This document shows, one piece after another, positions 1-21,600 of a DNA stretch of 42,946 nt (position 1 is the stretch's first letter; each line of letters begins with the position of its first letter). The translations under genes and the position numbers were made by a program. Under the pieces are notes generated by a model. That model searched no databases and was not told where the DNA came from. It saw nothing but the letters and a program-made list of their open reading frames with translations. The stretch comes from a virus (taxonomy: Duplodnaviria > Heunggongvirae > Uroviricota > Caudoviricetes): the IMG/VR virus record IMGVR_UViG_3300014204_000003, positions 64,001-106,946 of that record. One strand, written 5' to 3'.

Positions 1-135
1 TACGGCTGCAAGTACCAAGTCCTTAGGGACAATACGCCCATGTTGACGTTTTTTAATCTTCTCAATTTCATGGGTCAGGACCTTAACATTGATCTTTTGC
101 CTTGCAGCCTTTTTTATCCCATAGTGGATATCCAT
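1..135 (-). CDS. Partial ORF running off the window end (MDIHYGIKKAARQKINVKVLTHEIEKIKNVNMGVLSLRTWYLQP...), hypothetical partner of the RAMP-like gene
   Basis: ATG at 135-133, 6 nt after the stop of the 142-819 gene; open to the window edge; not in the ORF track. Confidence 0.6.
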   Translation of the reverse strand, partial: MDIHYGIKKAARQKINVKVLTHEIEKIKKRQHGRIVPKDLVLAAV

Positions 136-141
136 AATTTA

Positions 142-819
142 TTACCTTTTGGATTTTTTAACACCTTGGTCATCAAACGCCTTAGTGTCCACATGGAAGG
201 CGCCATATTCTCCATTCTTTTCTTGGCGCCACTCTCCAACCCCGACAGCAAAACCCGCCGTGTTAAAAAGGTTGACAATCTGATCCCGGCTAAGGAGATT
301 AGCATTGAATGAAACCGCCAGAAGGCATTTCCATGGAAAGAACTGTCCGCGATATCGGATGTCGGCTACACCCATTCCTATGCGCACCATATCCTCGCGC
401 ATTTCAGGTTCCGATCCCTCAACAGCGACAAGATTAGTTCTCATTTCGGAACCGTTAAATACCGTTTTAACGGGAGCCATTTCTCCAATCACCCTAAATG
501 CTTGCCGGGCCGCAATCTTGGTTACTCCCGAAAGACTGGTACAAGCTGTTACGGCTGCATTCTTGAAAGCCACGGAGGGGAATCCGTATCTTCCATCAGG
601 CATCCTATAAAGAGAAGCTTCATAATCAGCAACAGGGTCCTTGGCTACTCTCCCGGCGTTAGGGTGTTTCATTTGCTTATCAAGCATTTCCTTAATAGCC
701 TTCTCGGCCCATCTGTGACAAATTAAAGCCGAATCTCCCACAATAGGGATCATCACGGTTTCGATATTCAATGTAGCTAATGAAATTCCAACGGCAACAT
801 CAGTTTTTTTAGCAACCAT
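142..819 (-). CDS. Stand-alone RAMP/Cas7(Csm3)-like RNA-binding protein (Vipr-like), ~225 aa
   Basis: Start reassigned to ATG 819 (GGGAG upstream). RAMP-like motifs in order: IPIVGDSALI (beta1), YGFPSVAFKNAAVTAC (cf. Csm3 IPGSSLKG), REDMVRI, IRYRGQF..W...L.V.F, and the C-terminal Gly-rich loop AGFAVGVGEWRQEKNGEYGAFHV. Confidence 0.75.
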   Translation of the reverse strand: MVAKKTDVAVGISLATLNIETVMIPIVGDSALICHRWAEKAIKEMLDKQMKHPNAGRVAKDPVADYEASLYRMPDGRYGFPSVAFKNAAVTACTSLSGVTKIAARQAFRVIGEMAPVKTVFNGSEMRTNLVAVEGSEPEMREDMVRIGMGVADIRYRGQFFPWKCLLAVSFNANLLSRDQIVNLFNTAGFAVGVGEWRQEKNGEYGAFHVDTKAFDDQGVKKSKR

Positions 820-844
820 AATTTTTAATTCTCCCGAAGTTATT

Positions 845-1600: not shown

Positions 1601-3781
1601 TTATAAGATTGAAATATCCCCATTGCAAAGTTCTATCCGGGAATCCGCCAAATCCTTCAGCCGATCCTGATGGGCAATGAAACAGACTTTCTGGAAATTC
1701 CCAATCTCTTTTGCCCGGCGAAGCATCTGGATGTATCGAGGAGCATTTTCATCATCCAAGGCGCCAGTGGTTTCATCCCGGAAGAGAGTTTGCCAAGAAA
1801 CGCCGGATTTCATTTTATTGAAAACGGCAATTGCCAAGCTTACGGATTCAGCGATGACGACCTGTTCTCCCCCAGAGTATCCATCGATACTCCCTTCCCG
1901 GCCTTTCTCGGAATCGATAGCGATGATGTCAAATTCGTCCTTATATCCGTTCCCATCCGCCTTGAGAACCTGAGTGACGAATTTGATACTGAATCTTGGT
2001 CCGAAGCATGAGAATAAAAGGTCATTTGTAATACTACTCACAGTCGGTCCGGCCGCATCTATTTCCAATGATTGAATCCCGGAAGGGCCGAATGCGTCAT
2101 TCAGGAGGCTCCATTCCTTCTGGTCCCGTTCGAGAGCAGTAATATCTCTCATGATAGGCACTAACTTCTTGCTGGATGCCACAACTCTAAACTGGAGGTC
2201 TTCAGCTTGGGTTATCTGCTTATTAAGACTATTGACATCACCTTCAGCAACTACCTTCAATGCGGAGGCGGTACTGTAATCGTTATTGGCAATAACCAAA
2301 GATTCGTTATAAGAAACGATATTTTTGCCTTCTGATTTAGCTTTAATGATTGCCGCTTCGGCGTGATCCTTCCCTTCTTCAGCGGCAATCATTTGCTCTT
2401 TGATTTCTCCGACCTTGGCTTTCGCCTGCTCTACTTGGCTGGAGATTGAGACTATTTTCTCGAGAGTTTTAATTCGAGGTTCAATAATTGAGAGTTTCCT
2501 CTCCAATCCTTCTATTTGGAGGTCATAATTAGCAATTAGGTCGGCATTTGGCTTTGGAATAGCTTTCTGCTCATCCTGAATCTTGAGCATTGATTGAGTG
2601 GTATTCAGAAGGTCAACCTGAAAACCATCAAGATTTTCTCTGGCTTCCGTGGCGCGAAGGAGGAATTGGCATTTTGCAAAATCACCCTCAGCCTTGCATG
2701 GAACCTCATCAATAGTGGCAGAGGCTAATTGAGCGTCTGCAATTGATTTTTCACAGAGTTTCTTTGTACTTTGAAGCTGCAACCAGCGTTGCCGGAGTTC
2801 ATTAACCTGCCTGTCGTACTCCACTTTTTCCAATTGAAGGTCCCGGCGCTGGATGTTTAATTGATTCAGTTCTTTTCTGGTATCTGCCTGAGTGGTCCGG
2901 GCGACCGATAATTCCTGATTCGCCTGTTCTACCTGATCTGCGCTTTCCAGTAATTTTTGGGTAATATCCAATCGTGTTTTTAAACCAACGATCTTATTTG
3001 TAAACCCGGTATACTTTTCCGTCTCTGCGGCTATAAGGTCCTGAATCCCCTTTAACCCGGACACCTTGGATTTAAGGGACCCTATTAATTCTGCCAATTC
3101 ACATATTTTTTCAGATATTTTGCGGACATTCTCTTTGCTGGTATCCAGTCTAATTTTTAACTGCTCAATATCTGGCACTTCTTCTTTTGACTGTCTCTCG
3201 ATCGTTGCCGCTTCCGACCGCTTTGCTAGGAGTTCGGAACTGCATAACTGGTGTTCTTTGCGAAACTCCTCTGTTACGCGCTGGAGGAGTTCGAGATTGA
3301 GCATCTTAATAAATAGGCCTTTGCGCTCAATCTTTGCGAGTTTAATGAAGCTTCCACGCTTATTCTGGGCCGCGAAAGAACTCGCCATCACCATATCGGA
3401 GTTTCCGAATAGCTTGGCTACTATGGCATCGAAATCCTTTGTCTTTCCGGTTATTCCCGGAAGAGGATTCTGTTGATCGTCGTAGAGGAACGCCTCCATC
3501 TTCGAATACACAGCATCTATGTTGACTACCGCTTCATAAATCTTGCCGTGCCAGTCGAATTTGAAATCAACCAAAGCATCCCTGCCCTTGCAGAATTCAT
3601 AAACACCAGGCCTCGAGGGAAGCATCCGATACAGAGAGAGAAACATCGATTCCATCAATGATGTTTTCCCTTGGCCATTTTTCCCGGTAATAGCGATAAG
3701 CGATCCGGGGATATCTGAGAAATTCACATGGATGTCATTCAGAACAGTGACGCCCCTGACCTTCATTTCGATCGGTATCAT
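1601..3781 (-). CDS. sbcC: SbcC/Rad50-like SMC ATPase
   Basis: Walker A GKNGQGKT, long coiled coil, signature YSGGE, Walker B FRDE, H-loop IAHQ. Start reassigned to ATG 3781 (ATGA overlap with upstream gene). Confidence 0.9.
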   Translation of the reverse strand: MIPIEMKVRGVTVLNDIHVNFSDIPGSLIAITGKNGQGKTSLMESMFLSLYRMLPSRPGVYEFCKGRDALVDFKFDWHGKIYEAVVNIDAVYSKMEAFLYDDQQNPLPGITGKTKDFDAIVAKLFGNSDMVMASSFAAQNKRGSFIKLAKIERKGLFIKMLNLELLQRVTEEFRKEHQLCSSELLAKRSEAATIERQSKEEVPDIEQLKIRLDTSKENVRKISEKICELAELIGSLKSKVSGLKGIQDLIAAETEKYTGFTNKIVGLKTRLDITQKLLESADQVEQANQELSVARTTQADTRKELNQLNIQRRDLQLEKVEYDRQVNELRQRWLQLQSTKKLCEKSIADAQLASATIDEVPCKAEGDFAKCQFLLRATEARENLDGFQVDLLNTTQSMLKIQDEQKAIPKPNADLIANYDLQIEGLERKLSIIEPRIKTLEKIVSISSQVEQAKAKVGEIKEQMIAAEEGKDHAEAAIIKAKSEGKNIVSYNESLVIANNDYSTASALKVVAEGDVNSLNKQITQAEDLQFRVVASSKKLVPIMRDITALERDQKEWSLLNDAFGPSGIQSLEIDAAGPTVSSITNDLLFSCFGPRFSIKFVTQVLKADGNGYKDEFDIIAIDSEKGREGSIDGYSGGEQVVIAESVSLAIAVFNKMKSGVSWQTLFRDETTGALDDENAPRYIQMLRRAKEIGNFQKVCFIAHQDRLKDLADSRIELCNGDISIL

Positions 3782-4047
3782 AATCTCGTAACCTTTCCGT
3801 TGTTTTCCGGATACCAGAAAATAGCATCCCGGCCGGCTTCTTTTAAAATTAAGGGTCCATGAGGGACAAAGAACCCATTCAGAAGCCCAATAAGTTGGGC
3901 AGTTCCCCATATGGATACTTTATCTCCGTCATTTTCGTAATAACCTCCCGCGGACCCGCAATCACAAGTCCTTGGGTCCGGCTTTCCGGATTTGAATCCA
4001 CGGAGTTTTATTACATCATGGCATTTGGTGCAGAAGATCAGTTTCAT
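3778..4047 (-). CDS. Small Cys-rich, probably Zn-binding protein
   Basis: CTKC and CDCG motifs; ATGA overlaps with both neighbours. Confidence 0.7.
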   Translation of the reverse strand: MKLIFCTKCHDVIKLRGFKSGKPDPRTCDCGSAGGYYENDGDKVSIWGTAQLIGLLNGFFVPHGPLILKEAGRDAIFWYPENNGKVTRL

Positions 4048-5186
4048 CGACAGCGTTGCTCCACAACTGATAATTTCTGTTTCATCCGGATAACAGTCTC
4101 CTCGCTAGGACGGTTATTATTAGCCAACCAATACGCTTCGAGTTTTTCCTCGAGACTCTGAGCTTTGGATATCTCCACCGAACGGACCAATTCCTTGGGT
4201 ATGGTCTGCGGCTCTATCTTTACCTCAAGGGCGCCGGCCGCCAGAAGAATCTTTTCAAGTTCCTCCCGGGCATGCGCAAGATCATCGCCTTCTTCTATTT
4301 TGAGGAGTGCCCGGACTCTGGCGCCTTTCGCTCGAGCCAGCATTTCATTGAATTGCTCGCCTGTCATGGATAACTGGAGAGGCCAGATGCAGTCGACGCT
4401 GAATCGATCGACAGTTTTTAGTTGATACCATTGGGTACTTCCTTCGTCGGTATCCAGAATGACGCAATATTTTTCGGGGTCTTCTCCATAATTCATTGCG
4501 GCCGGAGATCCAGGATATGAGAAAAGATCGCTCGCCGTAAGAGGCTGATGAAGATGAATATGCCCGAAGATCCCGCCATAGAGTCCGGATTCGGAGAGGT
4601 CGTTTAGTCCAAACCCAATCCCTTCTCCGATTAATGGTTGGTGGTTCTGTGCCTGAGCTCCAGCCACAGAGAGATGGCTTATCAGAATATGGGCAATACC
4701 GGGATACTTCGCACTGTAGAGCATGACATTATTCTTCACGTATTGGAGGCCCATTTGGGAAACGGTCTTATCCCCTTCATCTTTGGACATTCCAATATTA
4801 TGAGATTGCCATGTTGCCTTTGTGAACCATGGCAGGACGTGGAAAAGGTATCTGTTGGTTCCCGGGTCCGGGAAATATATATGAGGGCTATCGAATATCA
4901 GGATAGGGTGCTTGACCTCGAGATGCCCGAAGATATCCAAGTCTCCGGGCTGATCATGATTCCCGTAACATCCGATGACCGGAGCAACCGAGCATAATTC
5001 TTGGATAAGCCGTTGAAGTAGATTCCGGCCGTCCGCGGTGCTCTTATGATCGAATAGGTCTCCGGGAAGAGCGATATAATCTACTTTATGATCCCGGAAG
5101 ATTTGAGCTATTTGCAGGACGGATGATTCCACGTCCGCGTCCATTCCGGCGCCTATATGCCAGTCTGCTGTTCCACCAATTCGCAA
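4044..5186 (-). CDS. sbcD: SbcD/Mre11-like metallophosphoesterase nuclease
   Basis: DWH, GDLFD, GNHD, SH and GHIH motifs, YPGSP; TTG start with AAGGAG RBS; adjacent to sbcC. Confidence 0.9.
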   Translation of the reverse strand: MRIGGTADWHIGAGMDADVESSVLQIAQIFRDHKVDYIALPGDLFDHKSTADGRNLLQRLIQELCSVAPVIGCYGNHDQPGDLDIFGHLEVKHPILIFDSPHIYFPDPGTNRYLFHVLPWFTKATWQSHNIGMSKDEGDKTVSQMGLQYVKNNVMLYSAKYPGIAHILISHLSVAGAQAQNHQPLIGEGIGFGLNDLSESGLYGGIFGHIHLHQPLTASDLFSYPGSPAAMNYGEDPEKYCVILDTDEGSTQWYQLKTVDRFSVDCIWPLQLSMTGEQFNEMLARAKGARVRALLKIEEGDDLAHAREELEKILLAAGALEVKIEPQTIPKELVRSVEISKAQSLEEKLEAYWLANNNRPSEETVIRMKQKLSVVEQRCR

Positions 5187-5203
5187 GGTTCTCTCCTTTT
5201 TAT

Positions 5204-5231
5204 GGGGAGCCTATCTCTCCCCTGTTTTTTT
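5204..5231 (+). terminator. Intrinsic-terminator-like hairpin on the antisense (+) strand
   Basis: GGGGAG-CCTATCT-CTCCCC followed by TG and a T7 run on +; no U-tract on the minus (coding) strand. Confidence 0.5.
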
Positions 5232-5348
5232 CAAGTATCATGATTTCAATCTAGGGTTTTCTCTCTCCGGCACTCCTTTGAATAGAAATATGAACATAAG
5301 CCAACACCATGTTGGCAGTTTTCTCCCCGGATAGGATCAGGGAAACTT

Positions 5349-6389
5349 TTACTGAATATCTGGTAACTTAGAGAGAGAATCTTCGATAGCGAATAATTCG
5401 CCATCATTTAACTCTGACAGAGGAGGCCGCCCGGGAGATAGTTCTTCCCGTGTTTTGCCTTTCTTGGTGGCATAGAGCTTGGTGATTCTCTCAATTTGGT
5501 CATCACGATCAACCCAATATCTCCGCTCCATCTGTTCATCAGGATCCAATGATTCCAATGGTTCAATATTGGCAGCGGGGAGCGCAACCGGAGGCGGAAC
5601 CTCTGGAAGCTGCGGGTTTTGTGCTGCATCAATCTGGCTGGCAGTATCGGCCTCCAGCCTCATGACCTTAAACAGTTCATTCTCAATTCCCATCTGCTTT
5701 GCGGCCATAATGGTAATGAGTTTTGATTTGATAGCCGGATCGATTGCATCAATGTTGAATGCCATACGCAAAACGACAAACGGCTTTTCCAATTCTTCAG
5801 GGAAATAACTGCTCTGGATACCGAGAAGGCCTCGGAGAACCCTAAGCTTTGCCTTAGTGATAGTTAGTTGCTCAATATTTTGCCGGGCCTTCGCCAGTTG
5901 CTCGGGGTGCCCAACCATTGAGACCGCCTGAGGAGAATCTTCGCGCAGGTCATATCCGAACCCATCGCTTTGGGACCTTACTTGACCATCGATATCCCGG
6001 ATATAACCAGTGGCTTGATATCGGCATACATGAGAATTCTTCCCATCATCTACCCTATGGATGGTAGACTTCCCGCTTTTGGGATCTTCCCATGACACTC
6101 CTGCCAACTGTTCGAGGCGCCATAATCCAATTTTTGTCAGGCCGACCTTTCTGGTCCCTTTGATAGGATAGAGTTCTTGGTCGACATAATCCCCTTTGGC
6201 ATTTGTCTTTGTGCTGATGAGATATTGGTGGATGAAAACATTCCATCCTTCAGGAAGGTAAGGCACAGAGGACCGGCAGAAGGGAGTTAGAATATGAGCC
6301 CTGTCTCGGGCGGCAGTAAGTTCTTTTTGAACTGTTTCTAAATCGTGGAAAACTGAGCTACGCAGGACTAACGACTGATTTGATGCCAT
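5349..6389 (-). CDS. Hypothetical protein, possibly a single-strand annealing/recombination protein
   Basis: Strong RBS (GGAGGG). First gene of the operon containing sbcD/sbcC. GLTKIGLWRLEQLAGVSW motif and Pro-rich linker before a small C-terminal domain. Function inferred from context only. Confidence 0.4.
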   Translation of the reverse strand: MASNQSLVLRSSVFHDLETVQKELTAARDRAHILTPFCRSSVPYLPEGWNVFIHQYLISTKTNAKGDYVDQELYPIKGTRKVGLTKIGLWRLEQLAGVSWEDPKSGKSTIHRVDDGKNSHVCRYQATGYIRDIDGQVRSQSDGFGYDLREDSPQAVSMVGHPEQLAKARQNIEQLTITKAKLRVLRGLLGIQSSYFPEELEKPFVVLRMAFNIDAIDPAIKSKLITIMAAKQMGIENELFKVMRLEADTASQIDAAQNPQLPEVPPPVALPAANIEPLESLDPDEQMERRYWVDRDDQIERITKLYATKKGKTREELSPGRPPLSELNDGELFAIEDSLSKLPDIQ

Positions 6390-6460
6390 AATACCCTCCA
6401 ATGCTTCTATTATTCTCCAGGGACTTCCATAAAATCTCCGGAGGGTGTGTTGACCGAGCC

Positions 6461-7201: not shown

Positions 7202-7687
7202 CTATGGGCATGGCCTTTTCCCCAGTAAAACATTAACCATAAGTTGGATATCCAGAGAATTAACAGATCCATCCCCATTGATATCTCCGGCAAGCAATGG
7301 GGGTTTTTGAATGACAGCATTTGCAACGCCTTGAAGATCGAGGGTGTTAATATTGCCATCGCCATTATAATCACACCGAGAAGTCGGCACGAATGCAATG
7401 ATTTTACTCACTTCGTTGGAATAATCGCTTTCATTGCCAGCGGCATCAAAGGCAGTAACGGCGAAGTAATAAGTGCCGAAGGTCAGGCCGGTTACTATGT
7501 AATTGGTTTGATTGCCAATAGAGATAGGGGGGCCGTAAACTCTGCTTTCAGTTCCAGTGTATATGCGGTATCCTGCTATATTCTGGCTTACGCTAGAATC
7601 CCAAGCGAGAGGGACATCTGCTGCTGCGAGGATTGGGATTATTAACAGCGAGACAAGCCAGCCGTAAAGAATCGTTTTAAAAAGCAT
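7202..7687 (-). CDS. Secreted FN3 + dockerin-like (paired EF-hand) protein
   Basis: Signal peptide; FN3 (LAWD..AGYRIY..GTYYFAVTAFDAAGNESDYSNEV); two Ca-binding repeats DYNGDGNINTLDL and GDINGDGSVNSLDI. Confidence 0.85.
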   Translation of the reverse strand: MLFKTILYGWLVSLLIIPILAAADVPLAWDSSVSQNIAGYRIYTGTESRVYGPPISIGNQTNYIVTGLTFGTYYFAVTAFDAAGNESDYSNEVSKIIAFVPTSRCDYNGDGNINTLDLQGVANAVIQKPPLLAGDINGDGSVNSLDIQLMVNVLLGKRPCP

Positions 7688-9657: not shown

Positions 9658-12600
9658 TTATTGGTTTGGTGGGGGCTCAAGTCCCGAGCCGGGGGGAGAC
9701 GGCAACGACTCCGACTTTTTACTTAGCATATTTTCATAATGATCAAGAGCTCCGGCGGCGATACCATCCATTACTTCTTTGATCTCTTTAATTCGAGCAT
9801 CTTTAAGATCGGTTGGTATATTGACATCACCCCTGAGGGACCACAGCCGTCGTTCTTGATTAGAGAGGTTCCGGCTTGTCCGCGCAAACCTTCCTTTCAG
9901 CTTGGCCAAAGGATACCGCTCTAGTAATTTTTTGCGGTCTTCTCCTTTATTGATCCTATCTGCGACTATTGTGGATTGCCTTTGGACATCCTGATTGGCG
10001 TTAGCAAATCTCCGTGTGTTATCCCCAATATTTCGTTTTTCCCTGGATCGATCCTTAGACGCTTCTCTGATAATACGGGCTTCTTTCCTTTCCCTTTCTA
10101 TTGTTCCATAACCTCCAATCTTAACTACCCTTCCGGCAAATTTCCCGAAAACCGGATCATATTGAGTCCATGTCTGATACCAATTCTGGTCAGAATTATC
10201 GAACGTCTGATATTGACCTAACCCCAATTGATTTACAGAGAAGAGAAACATCCTCCAGTTAGCTTCCAATGACAATCTGCCTTCTTCGGCAACATCTGGA
10301 GGAAGAACATTTCTTCCCCGGAATCCATCCTTTGGGTTCCTTCCCTTGAGATAGAACTCATAATAGGCAGAACCTAACTGTCCGATTGGGGACAGACTTG
10401 GAAGCAGCGCCGTCATGAAATCGACAACATTTTGCCATGTATTTGGATCATTGGCTTCCATGCCCCTGAGTATTGTGGACATAATCCCAGTAGAAAGCCG
10501 GGATCCTTCATCCAAAGGCATGGAGAAGAATATGGGTTTACCGTCCTCTGTCTCTGCAAATGGGACATTCAGGTAATTCGATTCCATGTAATCGGAAATC
10601 TGCCCATATTTATCCTTAAACCAATCGCTAAGTTCATCTCCTAAAAAGCTCTTAAGAGCGCCGGCCGCCAGTAAAGCTGCAAGCACTTTAAGGAAGGCAA
10701 TCTTGCCAGCACGGAGGATATACCCTCCTCGAGTATTCGGATTGGCGAAGGTCTGATATTCACTCACCCACCCTTGGAGGAACATGGTTGCAAACGGGAA
10801 GATTCGGTTCATGTATCTTCCAGCCTTGCCCTGCCGGTACCATGCCGGAGTGCTGGTAAACCGTCTCATGTTGAAAGCGAGCGTTTTCCCTTTTTCCCCG
10901 GCGCCTACGCGAACGATGTGTCCAGCCGTTTTGCCCATCAATTCGAATAATTGGCTTGGGTAAGAAAGCTTTTGGAGGATCCACATCGCTCCCCGATACA
11001 TCTTGGCTGCCGACCTGGGATCGATATCGCCATTATCAGTTATAACCCCGACTCTCTTAAGCAAATGATGATAAGGATCATTTTCTTGGGACACTACATT
11101 GGAAACTGACACCGACCATTCATAGGAAGAAACCATTTCCTTAATCATGTCATCGCCCTTGCCAGCCAGCCAAGAACGGACATGTGGATAGGCTTGGCCA
11201 TAAGCGCGAAGTAATTGAATAAAGTCTCCGAAAAAGACTGTATTCTTGAGAGGAAGCTTTTTGTAATTACTCCAGAAGTCTCTATTGGGATTTCCCCATC
11301 CTCCGAACCCTAGATTATAGAGAATAACTATCTTCCACCACACTTCATGGAAATGGTTAAGCCATTTAAAGCCATTGGCAATAGGAGTGGGACCTCTCTG
11401 GTTGATGGAATCAGCGATGTATGGGTCCATTTGGTATCCAACCGTTTTGCCGTTCTCGAGAATTTCCACAACTTTCTTGTCAGGTTCGGCTCTCCAAGTC
11501 GGAATTACATCGGTGGTTACGATAGGTTCAGCTTTGGATACAGCTCCGTGCTCATAGCTTCTGAAGAAATCGATGGTAGCCCGTTTGGCTTCTTGAATGG
11601 TAATGAGATCAATCAAGGCCAGTCTCATTTTGATATCTGAGATAATTGGATTCTCAACATCCCCAGCAAACCCGATCTGAGCCCGGACCATAGGGCTAAC
11701 ATATTTCGATATATGTTCTGCTGATACAAACTTCACGTAATTGTATTTATTTTCCTCGAAGCTTTCCTTGGCCCGTTCGGGATATATCCCCACTTCAAAT
11801 GCTTTCTCAACCAGTGGCCAATAGGCATCCGTGTAGGCATGGGCGGTATCTTCCAAAGCTTTGAATTTGACATCCCCCATTCTCTCGCGCAGCCGGTCCA
11901 GCGTTTCGGTCGCGTAGGCGCCACCGGCTATTTTGGGGTTCGCCACATTTGCTCTCTGAGTGGAAGAGCGGTGCAGAAACATATAAATCCCTAAAGCCAT
12001 ATAGGGACTGAAAGGCTCATTATTCTTAATAATGGAAGTCTTTCCGCTGGGGCTTTCCACAACCAGAGATTCAAATTTATCGTATCCAATGTCTTGTGCG
12101 GTAATCTTTGCCGGAAGAAGATATTTTTCGAAAACATCTTTCTGGAGCTTATCCATGAAGAGCCATCGATTGTTGTAGCTCTTGAAATTAAGTTCATCCC
12201 AGAGATATTTAGGATTCTTGGTTTCCGGGATAAGACAGCCGGCCTTTTGAGCTCTATTAACGCGCTGCTCGGTTTCCCATCTCATATCAAAAACATAGTC
12301 CTTAATACTCCCCCAAAATGCCCGATGAAGCTCATGGACTTCCTGTTCGATATTTCTGGAGATAGCTTCCGCCTTCTGGATCATTCCTCCCACCAGATTA
12401 ATTCTATTGTCCAGGTAATCTTCCGGAGTGTTACCGGACATCATCATCCTCAACTTGACATAGGCGTCCTTGAATTCCGGTTTCCGGTCAAGATAAGCAT
12501 GGAACTCCCGGGTAAACTTCGGAGCCAGCCGACGAGCGGTTCCCGGAGAATTGAGCATCACGGACACAAAATCAGCGTAGAGCTCTCGAGGGCTTCGGCG

Positions 12601-15600
12601 ATACTTAATATATCCCTCAGTTTCCTTCTTGGGGTCGTAAGGCTTCCAGTATTCACTGAGAGCGATAAGTTCATCTTTGAATTCCTTGGCAGCGGGGATT
12701 ACCTTATCCCAATGTTTTTTGCGCATACGGCGAAGAGTAAGCAACCGGCCAAGTAAATTGCCCCGGTTGAGTGTCTTGTCTGGAAGCCAATCAGCCAAAT
12801 GGCCAATTTCATGAGCCATAGTACGAGCTAATTGCTCTCGATTCTCAGCCTTAAACAGGTCCGGACGGATTTCGATCTTTCCTTCATCGATTCCCGTAAA
12901 CCGGCCAAGACTTGAGCTCAGTCTTTTATTGAGCATGATTGGCTTGCCGGTAAGTTCATGAACGATATTCATTAACTCCGGAATTTCAATTCTTCCCCAC
13001 ATGTCCTCTTCGGTGACATCCGAGGTTCCGTCACCATAGGAAATAATCCGGAATTGGTGGGACTGATCATCTATAGTCCATCCTTGAGTAACCGGCTTCA
13101 CTACCGCAGTTATTGGGTCCAAGATAATGCCGGCCTTACTTTCAACCTCATCGATAATTTCCTGAGGGATCCTGCCTTGAGAAAGCCGCGGGGATATCGT
13201 TTTCGTTTCAATAGTGGCGATATGGTTGGGGCCCTTTTCCTCTTCTCTCGCCGATGCGTACATCTTTTTCCCGACCTTGGCTTCGGCAATATCAGTGCCC
13301 CATCCAGACCTTGTAGTAATGGAAGGAACTTCATAATCACTTGCCGTTTCTGGCTGTTCTCCAGGAGTGGTTTCCATATCCTCTGGAGGAGTGGGTAGCC
13401 CTTCTTCTTTCTTTGGGCGGACCTTTGCTTTTCTTGGCTTGATATCCAATCCGCTGACAAATGCCCTGTCTCCTAACTGTTCTTCTCCTATACCGCGTTC
13501 CCGGGCCAGTTCTTCAATGGTTTTATCGAGACGTTTGGCGTCTTCATATAAAGTAACGAAGTCAGTTGCTTTCTTGAATTCGCTATTTAAGGTATCCAGC
13601 CGCTCCATTAACTTAGTGATTTCCTCTTGAAGCTCATCCCTTTCCGCATACGTTTTCTGGATATTATCTTTATGCCCCTGATATCTCCGGCGAAGGCTAT
13701 CGCTTGCTTCTCCTCTTGCAAAGGCTTGCTCTATGTCGTTGATACTTTTTTCGCGCCATTGGACATCATCAAGAACATTCTTTAAATGGCTGTGTTTTCT
13801 TTCGACAATGGCGGTTATTTCCTGTTTCGCCTTCACTACTGAGGTTATTGCATGTTTCGCCCGGAAGTAATCCAGAGTATCGGTATTAATTCCGGCCGAA
13901 TCCGAAAGCTCTTCGAAGTTTCGCCCATCCTGATCAAAGTCTAAAACCTCATCGGCTTCTCCTGTCCAGAGTTCCAATCCCCATTGATACTTTCTCGCTA
14001 TGAGGTCATACATTTTTGCATCACTGGTTCCTCCGACGAGGAAGCGATAGATTTTAACACTATCGTTTTTATTCCCCTGCCGGAGTCCACGGCCGTCCGC
14101 CTGTTCCATTGCTGCAAAGTTATATGGGACATCAATATGATAAATGGCATTGGTGGAGGTCTGAAGGTTCATCCCTTCGCCCATAGCCGCCCGACTGCCA
14201 ATAAGGAATCGTATCTTTCCTTCGGCATTTAACTGCTGAAGCTTGAACTTTGCTTTGGCGCCGGAATTAACCTGCCCATTTACGATTGCAATTTGATCCT
14301 CTGGGATCCCACTTTCGACAAGGCGATCTTTAATAACCTGGTGCAGGTTTACCAATTCAACAAAATGCTCGTTTTTCTGCTCTTGCTGGAGGTCATCGTC
14401 GTTATCTCCCGTTGCAGCTTTGCCGGAGTCAGGATCATCTTCTTCGGTGATTCCACCACGATATAGATCAAGAAAGACTAATTGAGTGTTTTCGCCCGTA
14501 TCATTGTCGATCATGAGCCTAACGACTTCGGCTATCTTGGTCCCGGGTTCACCAACTTTATCTTTAAATTCCTCAGCATCATAGATAGCCGCATCCGCAG
14601 CTAGTTTCCGCGCTCTGGTAAGAATTGACAGATGATTGATCCCATCCATTTGAGCGGCGATGGGATCACTCTTCAGATAATCCTCGAGCCATGCGATGTA
14701 GCCGGCCGCTTCCGTTATCGGGCCAGTCGGGGGAAGTTTGATGTCGATATATTCTGCATCCGGACGTTTGATTCCAAGCATCTCAATAGTGCGGAAATCA
14801 ATATAACGCCGGAAGATATTGCGCAACTCAGTCAGGTTTTTGTATCCTGCCCATACTGTTTTGGATGTTGGAACGCCTAAGGCGCCCTTAACTTCCCTGG
14901 TTTCCATTCTTCCAAACTGCTCAATAAAATCTCCCGCATTATTAATGCCGCGATTCGTCCATTCATCCGGAGCTACATACTGCATCATGACGTAGATTTC
15001 TGCTGGATGGTTTGGGGTAGGAGTAGCGGTCATCATCCAAACATTCTGACCTTTTCGGCCGCCCCGGCGCTCATGAATGTAACGGGTTTTATAAATCATA
15101 TCATCAGCGCGTTGTGCGGACTTGGCCTCCCGAACGTATTCCGCCATATCCGCATAATCACGTGAGGCATTTTTATAGTTGTGCCCTTCATCGATCATGA
15201 TGGCGTCAACTCCAAGATCCTCAAAATACATGGTCTTGGTTTTCTTCATCTGTTGCAGTTTAGTGAGTTTTTCCTCGAGACGAAGAAGAGCATTCTGAAT
15301 ATCCTGCTCATGTTTCTTTGCTCTCTTGTCTGATTGCTTTGCTGACGCTTCCTGCGCTGCCCGGAGGCGGTCCTCGAGTTTTTTGATATCCTCTTGGATA
15401 TATTCCTCTGACTTTCGAAGAGGAATCTCTTTCATTCCTTCAAATGTTGCGAGAACAAAATCCGCGTCACTGACAGCAAGCCGCTGGAGCATCTTGTATC
15501 TATTATTAGCATCCATCCCGGACATATCTACGATTTTTGCATCCGGAAGAGCTTGAGATATTTCATAGGCCCAGTTTTTGACAACCTTGGACGGGACAAT

Positions 15601-18600
15601 AATTAATGGCTTTTTAACCTTATTCCTGTTTTTTAAATGAGCCGCCAAGAGAATGGCTGTTAAGGTTTTACCTCCTCCGACTGCATAGGAGATAATTCCG
15701 CTGCCTTGGTGCGTCATTCTGCCAACGCCCTGCCATTGGTGAGGATTTATCGTTAAGAGCTTACCCTTGAATACCGCACTCAGCCCGGGGATATCCAACT
15801 GCTTAGGAGAATAGAACCTTTCCCTGAATGATCTATAGGCACGGTTATATTTTGGAGTGATGCTTTCAAATTTATTGAGATTTTCGTTTCCCCACTTCCT
15901 GAATTGCTCAGAAATGGCGGTATATATCTTCTCTCCTGTCTGGTCGTAAATCTTTTTCATAGTCGGCCGTCCGCGAGAATCAGTCCTCCCTGTAGGGACT
16001 TCTTTTTGGGGCCGATTATGATTCAGGTAATCCTGGATGAATTCTGTTGAAAAACTTTTAACCTTTTCAACGGAACGAGTCCTTTCAATTCCAAGGTCGT
16101 CTTTGTATTGCTCATCCTCCATGACTTTGGTTTCCTGCTGGCCGCCATAACTGGATTTAAGTTCCCAAAAATATCTGCCTTTAATAGGGTCCAGTTCCTT
16201 GGAAACTTTATCAATCCATGGAGCATATGAATGAAGGAAATCAATTACAATACGGTCCTCAATATAAGCTGAAAATGGGTCTGATCTTCGGACAACTTCT
16301 GCGGAATCGGCCTGCGGAGGAAGAACCTCACTCAGTTTTGCCAACTGATTCTTTAATGCAGCAATAATCCTATCTTTCTCTGGTCCTTCAGGATGGTCTC
16401 CGCGCACTTGGTCTAGCATCTGTACGGTCTGATCTATTTTGGGATGGATGTCACCAAACAGATATTCATCGTTGATTTGCATGATTGGCGCTGAGGACCC
16501 ATCCAAGGCTTCAATGCTGAAATCCGGGTTCCCTACGAGCCGGGATGCCATCTTATTAATAACATCCGGAGTCATTTGATCTGGACCGATCAGGCCTTCC
16601 CCGTTATATCTCGCGGCAACTTCAGCCCAATCCATATCTCCTGTGTATTCATAAATGAATTTTGCCGTATCCACCAAATCCGTAGCATCAAACTCCCGGG
16701 GTTCCGGAGGAGGAAGGTACAGATTATTCTCAGAAAATATTTTACTCAGGCTGCCATCTGATTCAGTTAAAGCGGCAAGCTTCCACACTCGAGGATCAGC
16801 GAAAGGATACGGGCTGGCCGCAGGTCCTCCATTCAGATATTTCCATAAGTTTGGATCCGATGCCGGCGAACCGGTCGGATTCTGTTTATCGGTTGCCCAT
16901 TTCTTCTGATAAGCTGCCAAGAGAGGCTTTATCTGCGCTCTTAGGCTATCAGCGGTATCGACATCGTTATTTCTGAGAGACTTAAATAGATCATCGGCAA
17001 GTTCTACTAATTTAAGACCTTCTCTAACTCGATGATATGGCGAATCTTCCTTTTTGGTTTTCTTTGTGGAAATCTTTGGAAGCTCGGTTGCCTCGAGAAT
17101 TACCCCAGTTCCAGACTGAGCAAATCCCCATTTGCCTAATTCATCCATCCAGACGATAGTTCCGGGCACCATCCCCTGAGGAGTTTCTCCAAGGACATCC
17201 CGAATCTGCAATTCTTCATCTTCTTCAATCTTTGCAGTTGTCTCTTTGGCTTCATACCGGACATCATCGAGGAGAGCATTCTCTAACATTTCGGCATATC
17301 TTTCCTTGTCCATGACTACGCCGACTCTAGTTTCCTGCCCGGCCCGTACTCCATGTCCGGGCTTTAATTCCCCCCAAGCTTTCTCAGGGTGCTTTACGTA
17401 CCATTGGGAGAGATGCCCTCCGATGGGATTCTCATCTCCATATAAGGAGTTTATAAAGTCATCCTGATAATCGTCTTCTTTCCAGTTTTCAATTTCCTCC
17501 GGAGTGCGCTTTCTCAGGAAGATAATATCCGTGCTTCCATCGTATTGAGTATTGGCATGGTATTCTCCGGCTGGAGTTCGATAGGCGCCCAAGAACTCAG
17601 CCTTCCGGTTAATGCGCTTCCGGACATCAACCTTGCCCTTGCTAACACCGTCCATAGTCCCGGTACTGGTAATGAACATGACAACACCATTGGGCCGCGT
17701 CATATCCAGGGACTTCACAAAGAAAAAGTCATGAAGGGCTTTTATGTCTTCGTATTCTTTAGCTTCTTCTGCGTACCTCGAGGCGCCGCGGGCAGCATTG
17801 AATGGGACATTGCTCGCCATTACATCAAGATCTCTGCGCGGCATGAATTGCTCGAAGGGCAATTCCCTGATATCGGCATCCGGATAAAGAAGCCGGGCCA
17901 CTCTTACCGCGGTGGGATCAATTTCAGTCCCAAATAGTTTTGCATCGGCCGGCGCAAATCCCGGGATATTACCAATTCCGAATGCAGGGTCCATGACTTT
18001 GAGATTATCCATGGGGAATCCCATAGACCGGAGCTTGTCCCATTTCCAAGCGCAAATCCTGTAAGAGGTATAGTGTTCATAAAGGACACCCCTCTCCTGT
18101 TCTGTACTTCCAAGTCCGCCAGAACCGGTGTATCTCCTGAGGAGTTCAGTTTCCTCCTCTGTGAGGGGGTCTCCGGGCTGTTTTTTCTCTACGAGCTCTG
18201 CAACCTTGGCATTAATTTCACGCCGCTGGGTTTTAGTGAGGACTACGGATTTTCGCCCTCGAGGGGAGAATCGGGCCCCTTTTCTGGATTCTGCTTCAAT
18301 ATCTGATTCTTTAGCAGCTCCTCCAATTCCTTGCTCGGGGGGTAGCCCAAGAGAAGATCGTGTGTCAGGTCGCTCAGTAGGTTCGATTCCCCCAGTTTTG
18401 CCACCACCTTCGGGAATGATTCCTTCACCTTGCTCACGATCTCCTTTGCTCGCTTCTCCGCCTGATAAATCCGCGCCAACTCTGTCGAATGCTGCATAGA
18501 CTCCTCCGGTTCCACCGACGTAATCTTCCTCGCCGGTTATAGCCGACCATATTTTCTTGAATAATGGTTCGAGGACATCTCCGAGACCTTCCGCAATGTC

Positions 18601-21600
18601 CTCTGCCTCGTCATAAATAGACGCATGCCATTCTGACCGATCGGTTATGCCACTATTGTAATATTCATCCCCTAAGTCCACCAACATGCCAAATACTTCT
18701 GGGTCCGCAAGCATACCCTTAACGTCGGGACCAGCTTGCTTGCCGCCAGGTTCAATTTCTTCCGCAGTCTCGAATCCAGCCTCTTGGCTTTTCTTTTTCA
18801 GGTTCTTCCGGATCTCGTCCAGTTTGGAACTCTTAATCCGGGCGGGAGGCTTGCCTATCGGCGCCGATTCTCTAATAGACTGCGGACCGGTAATTATAAT
18901 TTCTTCCTGCTTCTGAGGCTTTGATTCCTGAGGAGGAGGAGCAAGCTCTCTCTTAACTTTTGATATCCCGGATTTTGCAATAAAGGCATCAATCTTGGTT
19001 GGGTCGGAAGGAATACCTTTCAAATCTGCAACCGCCCGGACAATCATCCGGATTCTGGTAGGCTTCATCCCGGCCATATCCTTGGATATTGATTGGGCAA
19101 TTTCACTCACCGGTCGCCCATCCAAGAGTTCGTTCACTATCTGATTGGCGACCCCAAACTTCACTGCATCATTATATTGCGCCCTGACTACCGGAGTCTC
19201 CACGGGACCTAAGTCCATATCTGGAAGCTTGCTTAAAATATCCTCAGGCGGAGCTTCGAGAGACGAAGGAGGTTCCGGCTTCTCCATTTTTTCAGGAACA
19301 GGGGGTATACCAGGTTCAATAATCTCCGGAGTTGGAGGAGATTCCAGCCCTTCAGGGAGTTCTCCTCCTCTCTTTTCCATAGTGCCGGCAGCGATATCTT
19401 CGGCCTTACCGGTGAGGAAGCGGAAAGTATCCGGAAGAGATTCCGTCTGAGTCTTAAATGAGTTGATTTGAGATTGCAAGTTCTCGGGGCTGACAACCGC
19501 GGTTGCAAATTCCTCCCATTTATTGGTCTCGGGATTCCATTTCTCTGCACGTACCCCAATTGTGGCTTTGTCGGATTTTGGTTCGACAATCCCCATAAGC
19601 TCGTGGTCCGTACCTTCTTCAACTGCCCGGGAGATATCGTCTTGGCTTATTCGGTCAGGTCGATAGAAATAAGTTCCCTTGCCGGCTATTTCTACTCTTT
19701 CCGCCCCGGTCATTCCGGAACGGATATTGAAGTTATTTAAGGCATCCGATTGTCCCCATGCGTCCATTGTCGTCTCGGGAACGAAGACAACTTTTCGGGT
19801 ATCCGAATCGATCGCATCAAGTTGAGACAGGATCGTCTCAGGTTTCTCTGGAAACGTCTCTTGAATTTCCTTCGGCACTCGGGCGCCCGGGATCTTGGGA
19901 ACATTCTGGCCCTCATAAAGATGGTCCATCCACCGTTGAGCTTCATTTAAAACTTCCTGAGAAGGTCCCAACCCTTCTTCAGATGAAATCACCAATTGGA
20001 CTTGGGGATTATCCGGACTCCCTCCAATCTGTGCTCCAACATGGAAAGCCGTTTCGGGAATATCTCCCATATTCTCAGAGAGGTAATGGGTAATCTCATT
20101 GGCAATTCTACCAACACCCCTTGCGGCATCCTTCTCATTCTCGGGAAGATTTTCTTCCCTGAGTGCGGCCATGACATCGGCTTGCGCGAGATTACGGACA
20201 AATGATGTCCTGGTAGCCGGATCCGGAATTAGAGATTTAAACTTCTCGCTAATCTCATCCACATTCCGATCGACCTCATCTTTGTCAATCTTGTCCCGTT
20301 CGGCATAGAGGCTGCGCAATACATCTAATTCCTCGTCAGGAATGACGCCTATTTCCTTACTTAACTCGGGGAACGCACTTGGATAAATGGGCGCTTGCAT
20401 GACGGCATCTTCACCATATTTCGCTGCCAAGGCGTCTTCTGCCGCGTCTATTTCCTTCTGTACCTCATCATAGGTTTTGGTGGAAGGCGGAGCAGTCTCA
20501 GGAGTCATAGCCGGAGCCACTGAGGGGGGAGGCGTAAGTTTTGCATCCAATTGTTTCTTGGCGTCAGAGAGTTTTTCTGATAGCTCGATATAACGAGTGG
20601 GGTCGCTTTCTCCCGATGCTTGTTCTAGTTGGGCATCAAGCTCCTTAATAGCATTGTCAAGTGCGTCAATCGTAAGGTCTGGGCCTACGGGAGTTGGAGG
20701 TAGCCCCGCTTCAATCGGTGGCGCTGGAACGGCTTCAGTTGGAGGAGGCACTACGGCTGGGGCTTCCGGAGCGGCTGGCTTCCCTTTGGCTGGGGTTTTT
20801 GCTGGCCCTCCGGTTGTCTTTGTAGGCCTCTCCACTGGAGGCGCCGGTTGTCGGCCGGGAGCATTATTAATATTGTCGACCGCATTCTTAATATCAGTGG
20901 GAGCGATGGTTTGCGCCAGTTCCTTCTTCTCTTGAGGCGACATGTTATTGTAAGCAATAGTCGCTTCGGCCGCGTCGACCTTACGGCCCATCTTTGTAGA
21001 TATAGTCTCAATGACGGAAGGGAGATGCATGGCGCCGACTGCGACAAATGTTTGAATGCCTGATTCGCCACCGGCTGCCAATCGTTGTCGGATATCTCCA
21101 TCTGTCATGGCCGCAGTAATACCGGCCGCAGCAATCCCATATCCGACCGCAGATTGCAAAGCCCGGCCTACCGCATATTCAGCCGGCGCAGCCGCATATT
21201 GATTAAGGTATTCCCTAAAAGCTCGATATTCGGCACTCTGGCGTGGGATGCCTTTTGAAAGTTCAGTAATTACTTTAGAAAGATTAGGGTTCCGCAAATC
21301 TATCTTAAACTTAGTTCCAAGAGCTCGGATTACCGGAGCCGCCCTCATCATTTCCCCAAGGAAGGCGATGGAATAAGAATGAATGATAGCATCCTTGGGT
21401 TTCTCTCCTTTGGCTATAGCCTCAATCGTGCTGGCAGTGGCCATTACCGTTCCGGCTTCTGTGCCTTGCATTACAGGAGAGATCACGTGATCTATAAGCT
21501 TTGGATGTCTGAGAACGAAATCCAATGTCTTGCCAAATTCAGGATAATTCTTTGCCAAACTTTCAATAGTACTCCCAGCGATTTCAGCAGATGCCGGCGC

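Follow-up and report, generated by a model that had tools for sequence, protein, structure and literature searches.

The minus-strand gene at positions 142–819 of the window raises the question of what a protein resembling a single Cas7 subunit is doing in a phage genome. The window, meaning the whole stretch of DNA analysed here (42,946 nt), covers the right-hand 43 kb of the record of an uncultivated phage, which is complete at 107 kb and has direct terminal repeats. DNA of the same phage is present in a landfill metagenome, probably its source, and in the groundwater metagenomes of another study. The sequence-only reading had described the gene product as an orphan phage protein with the motif order of a RAMP (Cas7/Csm3-like) protein and had offered an anti-CRISPR role as an alternative. 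The evidence presented below indicates that the locus is very probably a VIPR system, composed of the RAMP protein Vipr, a staggered guide array upstream of its gene and a candidate accessory gene (vap).

VIPR (Viral Interference Programmable Repeat) systems combine a minimal RAMP protein (Vipr) with guide RNAs termed vrRNAs and, in most cases, a single accessory gene, vap (10.64898/2026.04.26.720920). The same preprint describes vrRNAs as carrying 9–16 YNNGG repeats, in which the NN dinucleotide reads double-stranded DNA and one base is skipped per repeat, and distinguishes seven VIPR types, including 'staggered' arrays and repeat variants such as NNNGG. The preprints on VIPR date from April to October 2026, and the bench work in them concerns type II only, in E. 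coli and Pseudomonas phages.

The vipr gene and the predicted fold of its product

The gene begins with an ATG at position 819 and is preceded by a ribosome binding site, read from the sequence as GGGAGAA (829–835, minus strand), approximately 10 nt 5' of the start codon. The identical 225-aa product is given by the ENA and JGI gene callers on three independent contigs, and the ORF proposed in the sequence-only reading is thereby confirmed. All five motifs quoted in that reading occur in the protein in the order claimed: IPIVGDSALI at residues 24–33, YGFPSVAFKNAAVTAC at 78–93, REDMVRI at 141–147, IRYRGQF at 154–160 and GVGEWRQEKNGEYGAFHV at 193–210.

The label 'orphan' proved wrong, as the family is very large: 4432 matches were found among 90%-identity clusters, and at 50% identity the matches form 3299 clusters, 1943 of them with E<=1e-10. 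The corresponding PHROGs entry is phrog_4652 (E=3e-26), annotated as 'unknown function', and the protein has no family match in Pfam, NCBIfam or PADLOC, Cas7 family models included. A phmmer search of the PDB sequences with the single protein sequence returned one weak match (E=0.023), the Vipr protein of Escherichia phage SUSP1 (36pp_D). With a family profile built from 62 members, the same chain is matched at E=5e-13, with profile positions 21–200 aligned to residues 3–189 of the 202 in the chain, and the second-best PDB sequence lies at E=0.35.

SUSP1 carries a type II VIPR system (Vipr PDB entry 36pp, vrRNA and vap1), and the structures of its Vipr have one protomer per repeat, with the first guanine held by H17 and D177, the second by R138 and W178, and a pyrimidine pocket that includes R179 (10.64898/2026.04.26.720927). 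These five residues (H17, R138, D177, W178 and R179) align to H35, R157, E196, W197 and R198 of the present protein, four being identical and the exchange of D for E conservative; R157 and R198 are invariant among the 62 family members. Like the SUSP1 system, the locus therefore features one small RAMP protein of approximately 200–225 aa that retains the guanine contacts (H, R and D/E-W-R) together with the RRM core, thumb and the loop rich in glycine (G-loop). The two proteins are distant in sequence, as the pairwise E value above indicates, and tblastn of the phage collection misses SUSP1. Further differences are an extra residue (E71) in the Y-pocket helix of SUSP1 Vipr and the replacement of its M72 by F85. 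As judged from this homology and from the structural model described next, the product of 142–819 is Vipr, the Cas7-like subunit of phage VIPR systems.

The AlphaFold2 model of Vipr (pLDDT 92.3, pTM 0.86) is of the stand-alone RAMP type. It features strand 1 at residues 19–28, the first RRM helix at 82–95, a thumb β-hairpin formed by 139–147 and 151–160, and a helix at 178–191 followed by the G-loop. The quoted motifs fall on strand 1, the first RRM helix, the thumb hairpin and the G-loop. According to the model, Vipr has the minimal RAMP architecture, in which a single RRM core is accompanied by a thumb and a glycine-rich loop, and its length of 225 aa leaves no room for a second domain. In the PDB, each of the 50 best Foldseek matches is a Cas7-family subunit from a type III, type VII or type III-E complex, with E values from 2.6e-5 and a probability of ~1.0. 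VIA-align was run on the model against 48,161 chain representatives; its top chains, with Z scores of 11.0, 10.8 and 10.1 over 139–154 residues, belong to type III complexes and include the type III-B Cmr-beta subunit 6s6b_I (Z 11.0), a subunit of the Enterococcus italicus Csm complex, 9g9a_D (Z 10.8), and Csm3 (6ae2_B). The RAMP assignment that had been made by pattern matching, which placed strand 1, a helix, the thumb and a G-rich loop in that order, is thus borne out by the structure prediction and fold search it had called for: the predicted fold is of the RRM type and its best matches are Cas7 proteins only, so the earlier structural guess was correct.

The likeness to the Cas7 backbone proteins (Csm3, Cmr4 and the Cas7-11 domains of types III, VII and III-E) extends to the fold and to the order of the RNA-binding elements, with Z of 9–11 over 126–180 aligned residues, a Foldseek probability of 1.0 and an identity of 8–15%. 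In contrast to the Cas7 systems, the protein matches no Cas7 profile, has no cas neighbours in view, and lies in a genome with no CRISPR array; the RNA period of those systems is 6 nt, whereas a period of 5 nt is found here.

A pentamer array, probably of guides, upstream of vipr

Approximately 700–750 non-coding bases separate vipr from the stop codon of an sbcC-like gene at position 1601. Within this region, the minus strand of positions 892–1550 holds a non-coding array with pentamer periodicity (G-G/T-N-N-N), detected through the autocorrelation of GG at a lag of 5 nt. GG recurs at this lag 49 times, compared with 20.6±4.2 in shuffled sequences, and 0 of 500 shuffles reach 49. The rhythm is confined to the coding strand of vipr, and nothing comparable occurs elsewhere in the window or at any other site of the 106,946-bp genome. 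Among 80 IMG/VR loci encoding a Vipr homologue (37–68% identity), a pentamer array lies beside the vipr homologue on the same strand in 73 and, at an equal threshold, on the opposite strand in 7 of 80, six of the latter being copies of one locus. The related arrays are composed of GGC/GGT-NN pentamers with GGCA junctions; most follow a small ORF downstream of vipr, which is a homologue of the 156-aa gene described below, and a minority lie upstream, as here.

The array contains ten copies of the junction motif GGCAGTC (at 1548, 1509, 1445, 1392, 1295, 1149, 1087, 1023, 961 and 898) and is divided into about ten units, all on the minus strand. Five of these are regular, with a length of 62–64 nt made up of twelve pentamers (10–12 as parsed) and a 4-nt GGCA: unit 2 (1442–1505, 64 nt, 12 pentamers and GGCA), unit 6 (1084–1145, 62 nt), unit 7 (1020–1083, 64 nt), unit 8 (958–1019, 62 nt) and unit 9 (895–957, 63 nt), the last of which is followed by the final junction and a 40-nt trailer ahead of the ribosome binding site. 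Unit 7 is the best formed, with 12 pentamers, 10 of them GG-initial, and a terminal GGCA. Units 1, 3, 4 and 5 are irregular. Unit 1 (1506–1544, 39 nt) is degenerate, with two GG-initial pentamers out of seven, and unit 3 (1389–1441) has 53 nt. Unit 4 (1292–1388, 97 nt, 18 pentamers) is probably two fused units, and unit 5 (1146–1291) is a 146-nt composite, in which a periodic part is followed by an insert that lacks the rhythm and contains a small AGGCT/AGCCT hairpin, then by a degenerate junction (GGAAGTT) and a short unit. The conserved junction spans 16 nt, GGCA(A/T)-GGCA-GTC-WW-GG, and the approximately 46 nt between junctions are variable. At the end of a unit, the 4-nt GGCA moves the 5-nt register by one. 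This resembles the 'staggered' vrRNA arrays (10.64898/2026.04.26.720920, fig. S18 and Methods), which consist of guides that abut without spacers or ribozymes; where one guide ends the next begins, offset in register by 1 nt, as the GGCA provides here. In this array GGCA is followed by GTC, whereas in the relatives it is followed by GGC.

In the 114 pentamers parsed from the array, the first position is G in 89% and the second is G in 67% and T in 28%. The GG-phased pentamers carry a pyrimidine at position 3 in 56% and A in 31%, compared with 86% and 5.5%, respectively, in the arrays of 70 related loci. The array therefore departs from the published GGY rule, under which position 3 is a pyrimidine, and with three free positions its repeat resembles the NNNGG-type repeats described for other VIPR types (10.64898/2026.04.26.720920). 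A comparison of alignment columns between Vipr proteins with high-A and low-A arrays found no residue that cleanly tracks A at position 3. In SUSP1, a change of GGY to GGA abolishes silencing. Either the Vipr protein of this phage tolerates A at position 3, or a good share of the pentamers are weak; given the effect in SUSP1, some units of the array may be weak or dead. The relaxed third position bears on the subtype and leaves membership in VIPR intact.

The layout also separates the locus from type II. The vrRNAs of SUSP1 are approximately 100 nt long and each has a structured pseudoknot tail, whereas the regular units here have 62–64 nt and a 16-nt junction, about ten units are contiguous, the whole array lies upstream of vipr, and position 3 of the repeat extends beyond pyrimidines. 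No Rfam family was found anywhere in the window, and no structured 3' tail on the array units. Assignment to type II (the SUSP1 and Pseudomonas fulva clade) was considered and ruled out based on the lack of a structured tail, the units of approximately 63 nt rather than approximately 100 nt, and the distant protein. What is shared with SUSP1 is the presence beside vipr of guide genes built from 5-nt repeats with a constant GG, a small accessory gene directly downstream, and a phage as the carrier.

A scan of the minus strand found no sigma-70-like promoter and no intrinsic terminator, and a look-up of RNA-seq runs returned none that contains the stretch. The pair of nuclease genes directly upstream of the array (window 1601–5186, minus strand) encodes SbcC-like (769 aa) and SbcD-like (380 aa) proteins. 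No promoter could be recognised in the interval from sbcC to the array, which may be co-transcribed with these genes.

The array varies between strains of the phage. A contig from JGI 3300037067 encodes an identical Vipr protein, is 99.6–99.95% identical in the flanks, and lacks exactly 101 nt of the array, corresponding to positions 1077–1177 of the window (minus strand), which hold the short unit at the end of unit 5 (5b) and unit 6. The other 720 nt of the compared stretch contain 0 mismatches. Each edge of the gap lies just past a junction, with an ATGG microhomology at both ends; as the gap runs from junction to junction, two whole guides have been lost or gained as a cassette. Contigs from a groundwater metagenome break inside the array, at 1112–1156, although they agree perfectly with the window elsewhere. 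This break overlaps the 101-nt cassette polymorphism, and array variants may coexist in that sample.

The same polymorphism bears on a different interpretation of the G-rich tract, namely that it is a DNA-level element (prone to G-quadruplex formation, or a replication or recombination site beside sbcCD and ssb) or a set of small G-rich ORFs, in either case unlinked to the RAMP gene. The tract does lie within a replication and recombination module, and gene callers place ORFs of 66–67 aa in it. The G-rich ORFs called there are not coding, given that 101 is not a multiple of 3 and the indel would shift their frame, and none has a Pfam family on record. As for a DNA element, the rhythm is strand-specific and tied to vipr in 73 of the 80 contexts, which are unrelated to one another and among which is Mycobacterium phage Saal with its immunity region. 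This interpretation is extremely improbable, and the tract is treated in what follows as a vrRNA array.

It is conceivable, if on balance doubtful, that the Vipr subclade represented here uses a looser scaffold (G at position 1, G or T at position 2 and any base at position 3, where A is common) and that its arrays behave like miniature CRISPR arrays, in which the 16-nt quasi-repeat GGCAW-GGCA-GTC-WW-GG alternates with blocks of approximately 46 nt and recombination between junctions adds or removes whole guides, as between the two strains compared above. If this is true, recombination between junctions would be a simple route of guide turnover without Cas1.

The candidate vap gene, genomic context and relatives

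The gene directly downstream of vipr is a candidate vap. It starts 7 nt past the vipr stop codon, and the 5' part of this 156-aa gene occupies positions 1–135 (minus strand) before running off the window; the full gene spans 63665–64135 of the genome. The product matches PHROG 15946 at E=1e-20 and has no Pfam family. Its AlphaFold2 model (pLDDT 92) consists of an N-terminal domain weakly similar to winged-helix proteins (Z 5.6) and a 40-residue C-terminal helix, a predicted fold that is compatible with the vap class described as 'predicted DNA-binding', without proving it. A Foldseek search gave no significant match for this protein, and a word-based search for homologues returned the query alone. 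A homologue of the gene adjoins vipr, immediately downstream, in 73 of the 80 related loci.

On the minus strand, the order of the cassette is guide array, vipr and vap, within a compact 1.6 kb. The cassette is located inside a replication and recombination module, with the SbcD-like and SbcC-like genes upstream and genes for SSB, HNH, DnaD-like, IstB-like loader and DnaB proteins downstream. The DnaB protein exhibits 37% similarity to those of cultured phages, which is uninformative with regard to the host. Further from the cassette, a 350-aa protein (window 5349–6401, minus strand), whose gene has the sbcD-like gene on one side and the genes for lysis and structure on the other, matches phrog_13782, 'unknown function', and no Pfam family. 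The gene at 7202–7687 (minus strand) encodes a 161-aa phage protein in which a fibronectin type III domain is combined with a dockerin type I repeat (E=6e-11); such a pairing is unusual in phages and may be a clue to the host or to binding of a cohesin-like partner. The structural region contains a single ORF of 13 kb (9658–22728, minus strand) that encodes 4356 aa.

The genomic context also bears on the alternative that had been offered for the gene, in which a stand-alone Cas7 protein would act as a phage anti-CRISPR by poisoning or hijacking the class 1 complexes or crRNAs of the host. In its favour are the Cas7-like fold and the phage-borne gene. The failure of Pfam, NCBIfam and PADLOC Cas7 models to match argues against it, as does the finding that the closest solved relative by sequence is a Vipr protein and not a Cas7. 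Beside the gene lie a pentamer array that belongs to it and an accessory gene, each present in 73 of 80 relatives. No CRISPR-type repeat was detected in the phage (no 20-mer occurs at least three times in the 107-kb genome), and the surroundings of the locus showed no further cas genes. The anti-CRISPR role thus found no support and is very unlikely.

The preferred reading of the locus as a VIPR system is supported by homology to a characterised Vipr, a minimal RAMP protein, conserved guanine contacts, GG pentamers on the same strand and a neighbouring vap gene. The locus belongs to the known VIPR kind and is no new category; the staggered upstream array, the relaxed repeat and the guide-cassette polymorphism are features of subtype.

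Among cultured phages, 33 records (27 Mycobacterium phages, 5 Gordonia phages and 1 cyanophage) carry homologues of vipr and vap alike, all of which are annotated as hypothetical. In Mycobacterium phage Saal (Cheoctovirus, NC_023580), a phage of the cluster F type, gp51 and gp52 are approximately 40% and 28% identical to Vipr and Vap, respectively, and are adjacent in the same order. As here, the array of Saal lies upstream of vipr and its units are joined by GGCA. It holds four 59-nt units (~1590–1860) of almost pure GGC-NN repeats beside the immunity genes of a temperate phage, whereas the present array, set among replication and recombination genes in a 107-kb phage, has about ten looser units. 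The annotated start of Saal gp51 (locus position 1833) falls inside the array and is probably approximately 150 nt too far upstream. In the closest viral relative, IMGVR_UViG_3300038675_000499 (68% identity), the array is found at 3599–4071, directly after vipr; no vap homologue is detectable within the locus, and its GGC(C)AGTC-like junctions resemble those of the window. Two other relatives (L032 and L033) carry very long arrays at ~4124–5398, which cover approximately 1.3 kb and contain more than 180 GG-phased pentamers.

Guide targets, proposed mechanism and implications

Potential targets were sought with exact gapped patterns in which 1 nt is skipped per repeat, taken from units 7 and 2 (each with 12 and with 10 dinucleotides) and from the latter half of unit 4 (10 dinucleotides). 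These patterns gave 0 matches in IMG/VR and 0 in genome contigs, and the 12-dinucleotide pattern gave 0 in the JGI metagenomes. A 10-dinucleotide pattern had a single metagenome match, within a GNAT acetyltransferase gene on an unrelated contig (20/20 positions, or 21/24 with the flanking dinucleotides included), where the skipped base is codon position 1 and not the wobble position. This match is compatible with chance, approximately one being expected at this pattern size, and it was not counted. Two guides of Saal likewise gave 0 exact matches in IMG/VR. In a search tolerant of mismatches over the phage's own genome and the 80 related loci, the best guide matches were no better than those of guides with shuffled dinucleotides. 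No guide thus matched the genome of its own phage above these controls, and the VIPR preprint likewise reports no self-targeting for its systems (10.64898/2026.04.26.720920).

The blank in the target search is one of the points in favour of a variant reading, in which the locus is truly a VIPR system but one whose guides serve to regulate genes of the host or as decoys, or whose array has decayed in part and retains few working units. Many pentamers lack the canonical GGY, units 1, 3, 4 and 5 are irregular, and a further preprint describes decoy guides of satellites that are directed at sites in the host (10.64898/2026.10.15.759431). The blank itself means little, as only exact matches were counted and the host and co-resident elements of a landfill and groundwater phage lie outside the searched data. 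With regard to decay, the array is free of mismatches in a second sample except for a clean cassette indel, which argues for maintenance, and degenerate repeats are reported to be frequent in working vrRNAs (10.64898/2026.04.26.720920). This variant is unlikely, if less so than an anti-CRISPR role, and a VIPR system directed against competing elements is favoured.

By analogy with SUSP1, the array would be transcribed and processed, and one Vipr protomer would bind each 5-nt repeat. Each protomer would grip the constant G-G(-Y) through the RRM sheet, the thumb and the G-loop, with H35, R157, E196, W197 and R198 as the predicted contacts, and would leave the variable bases of the guide exposed. 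A unit of approximately 12 pentamers may then form a short helical filament that reads double-stranded DNA by a gapped code, two bases being read and one skipped, and that silences transcription of a competing mobile element. At the ends of the units, the 4-nt GGCA hiccup in GGCA(A/T)-GGCA-GTC would break the 5-nt register and so delimit neighbouring guides, as in a 'staggered' array. The 156-aa protein encoded downstream would serve as the accessory protein Vap. In this scheme transcription, processing, filament formation, the skip rule and the nature of the target are carried over by analogy from SUSP1.

The locus lies in a Vipr clade different from that of the type II systems studied at the bench, a very large one that includes cultured mycobacteriophages and Gordonia phages. 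For annotation, PHROG 4652 and PHROG 15946, both of 'unknown function', become readable as Vipr and its accessory protein, respectively, and small G-rich ORFs that gene callers place in arrays of this sort are artefacts. One compact cassette combines a contiguous multi-guide array, a relaxed consensus, and natural gain or loss of a guide cassette. It thereby offers a natural test case for the strictness of GGY, for how guides without tails are delimited and for how guide repertoires change, and Saal-type mycobacteriophages could be a tractable model for this Vipr clade.
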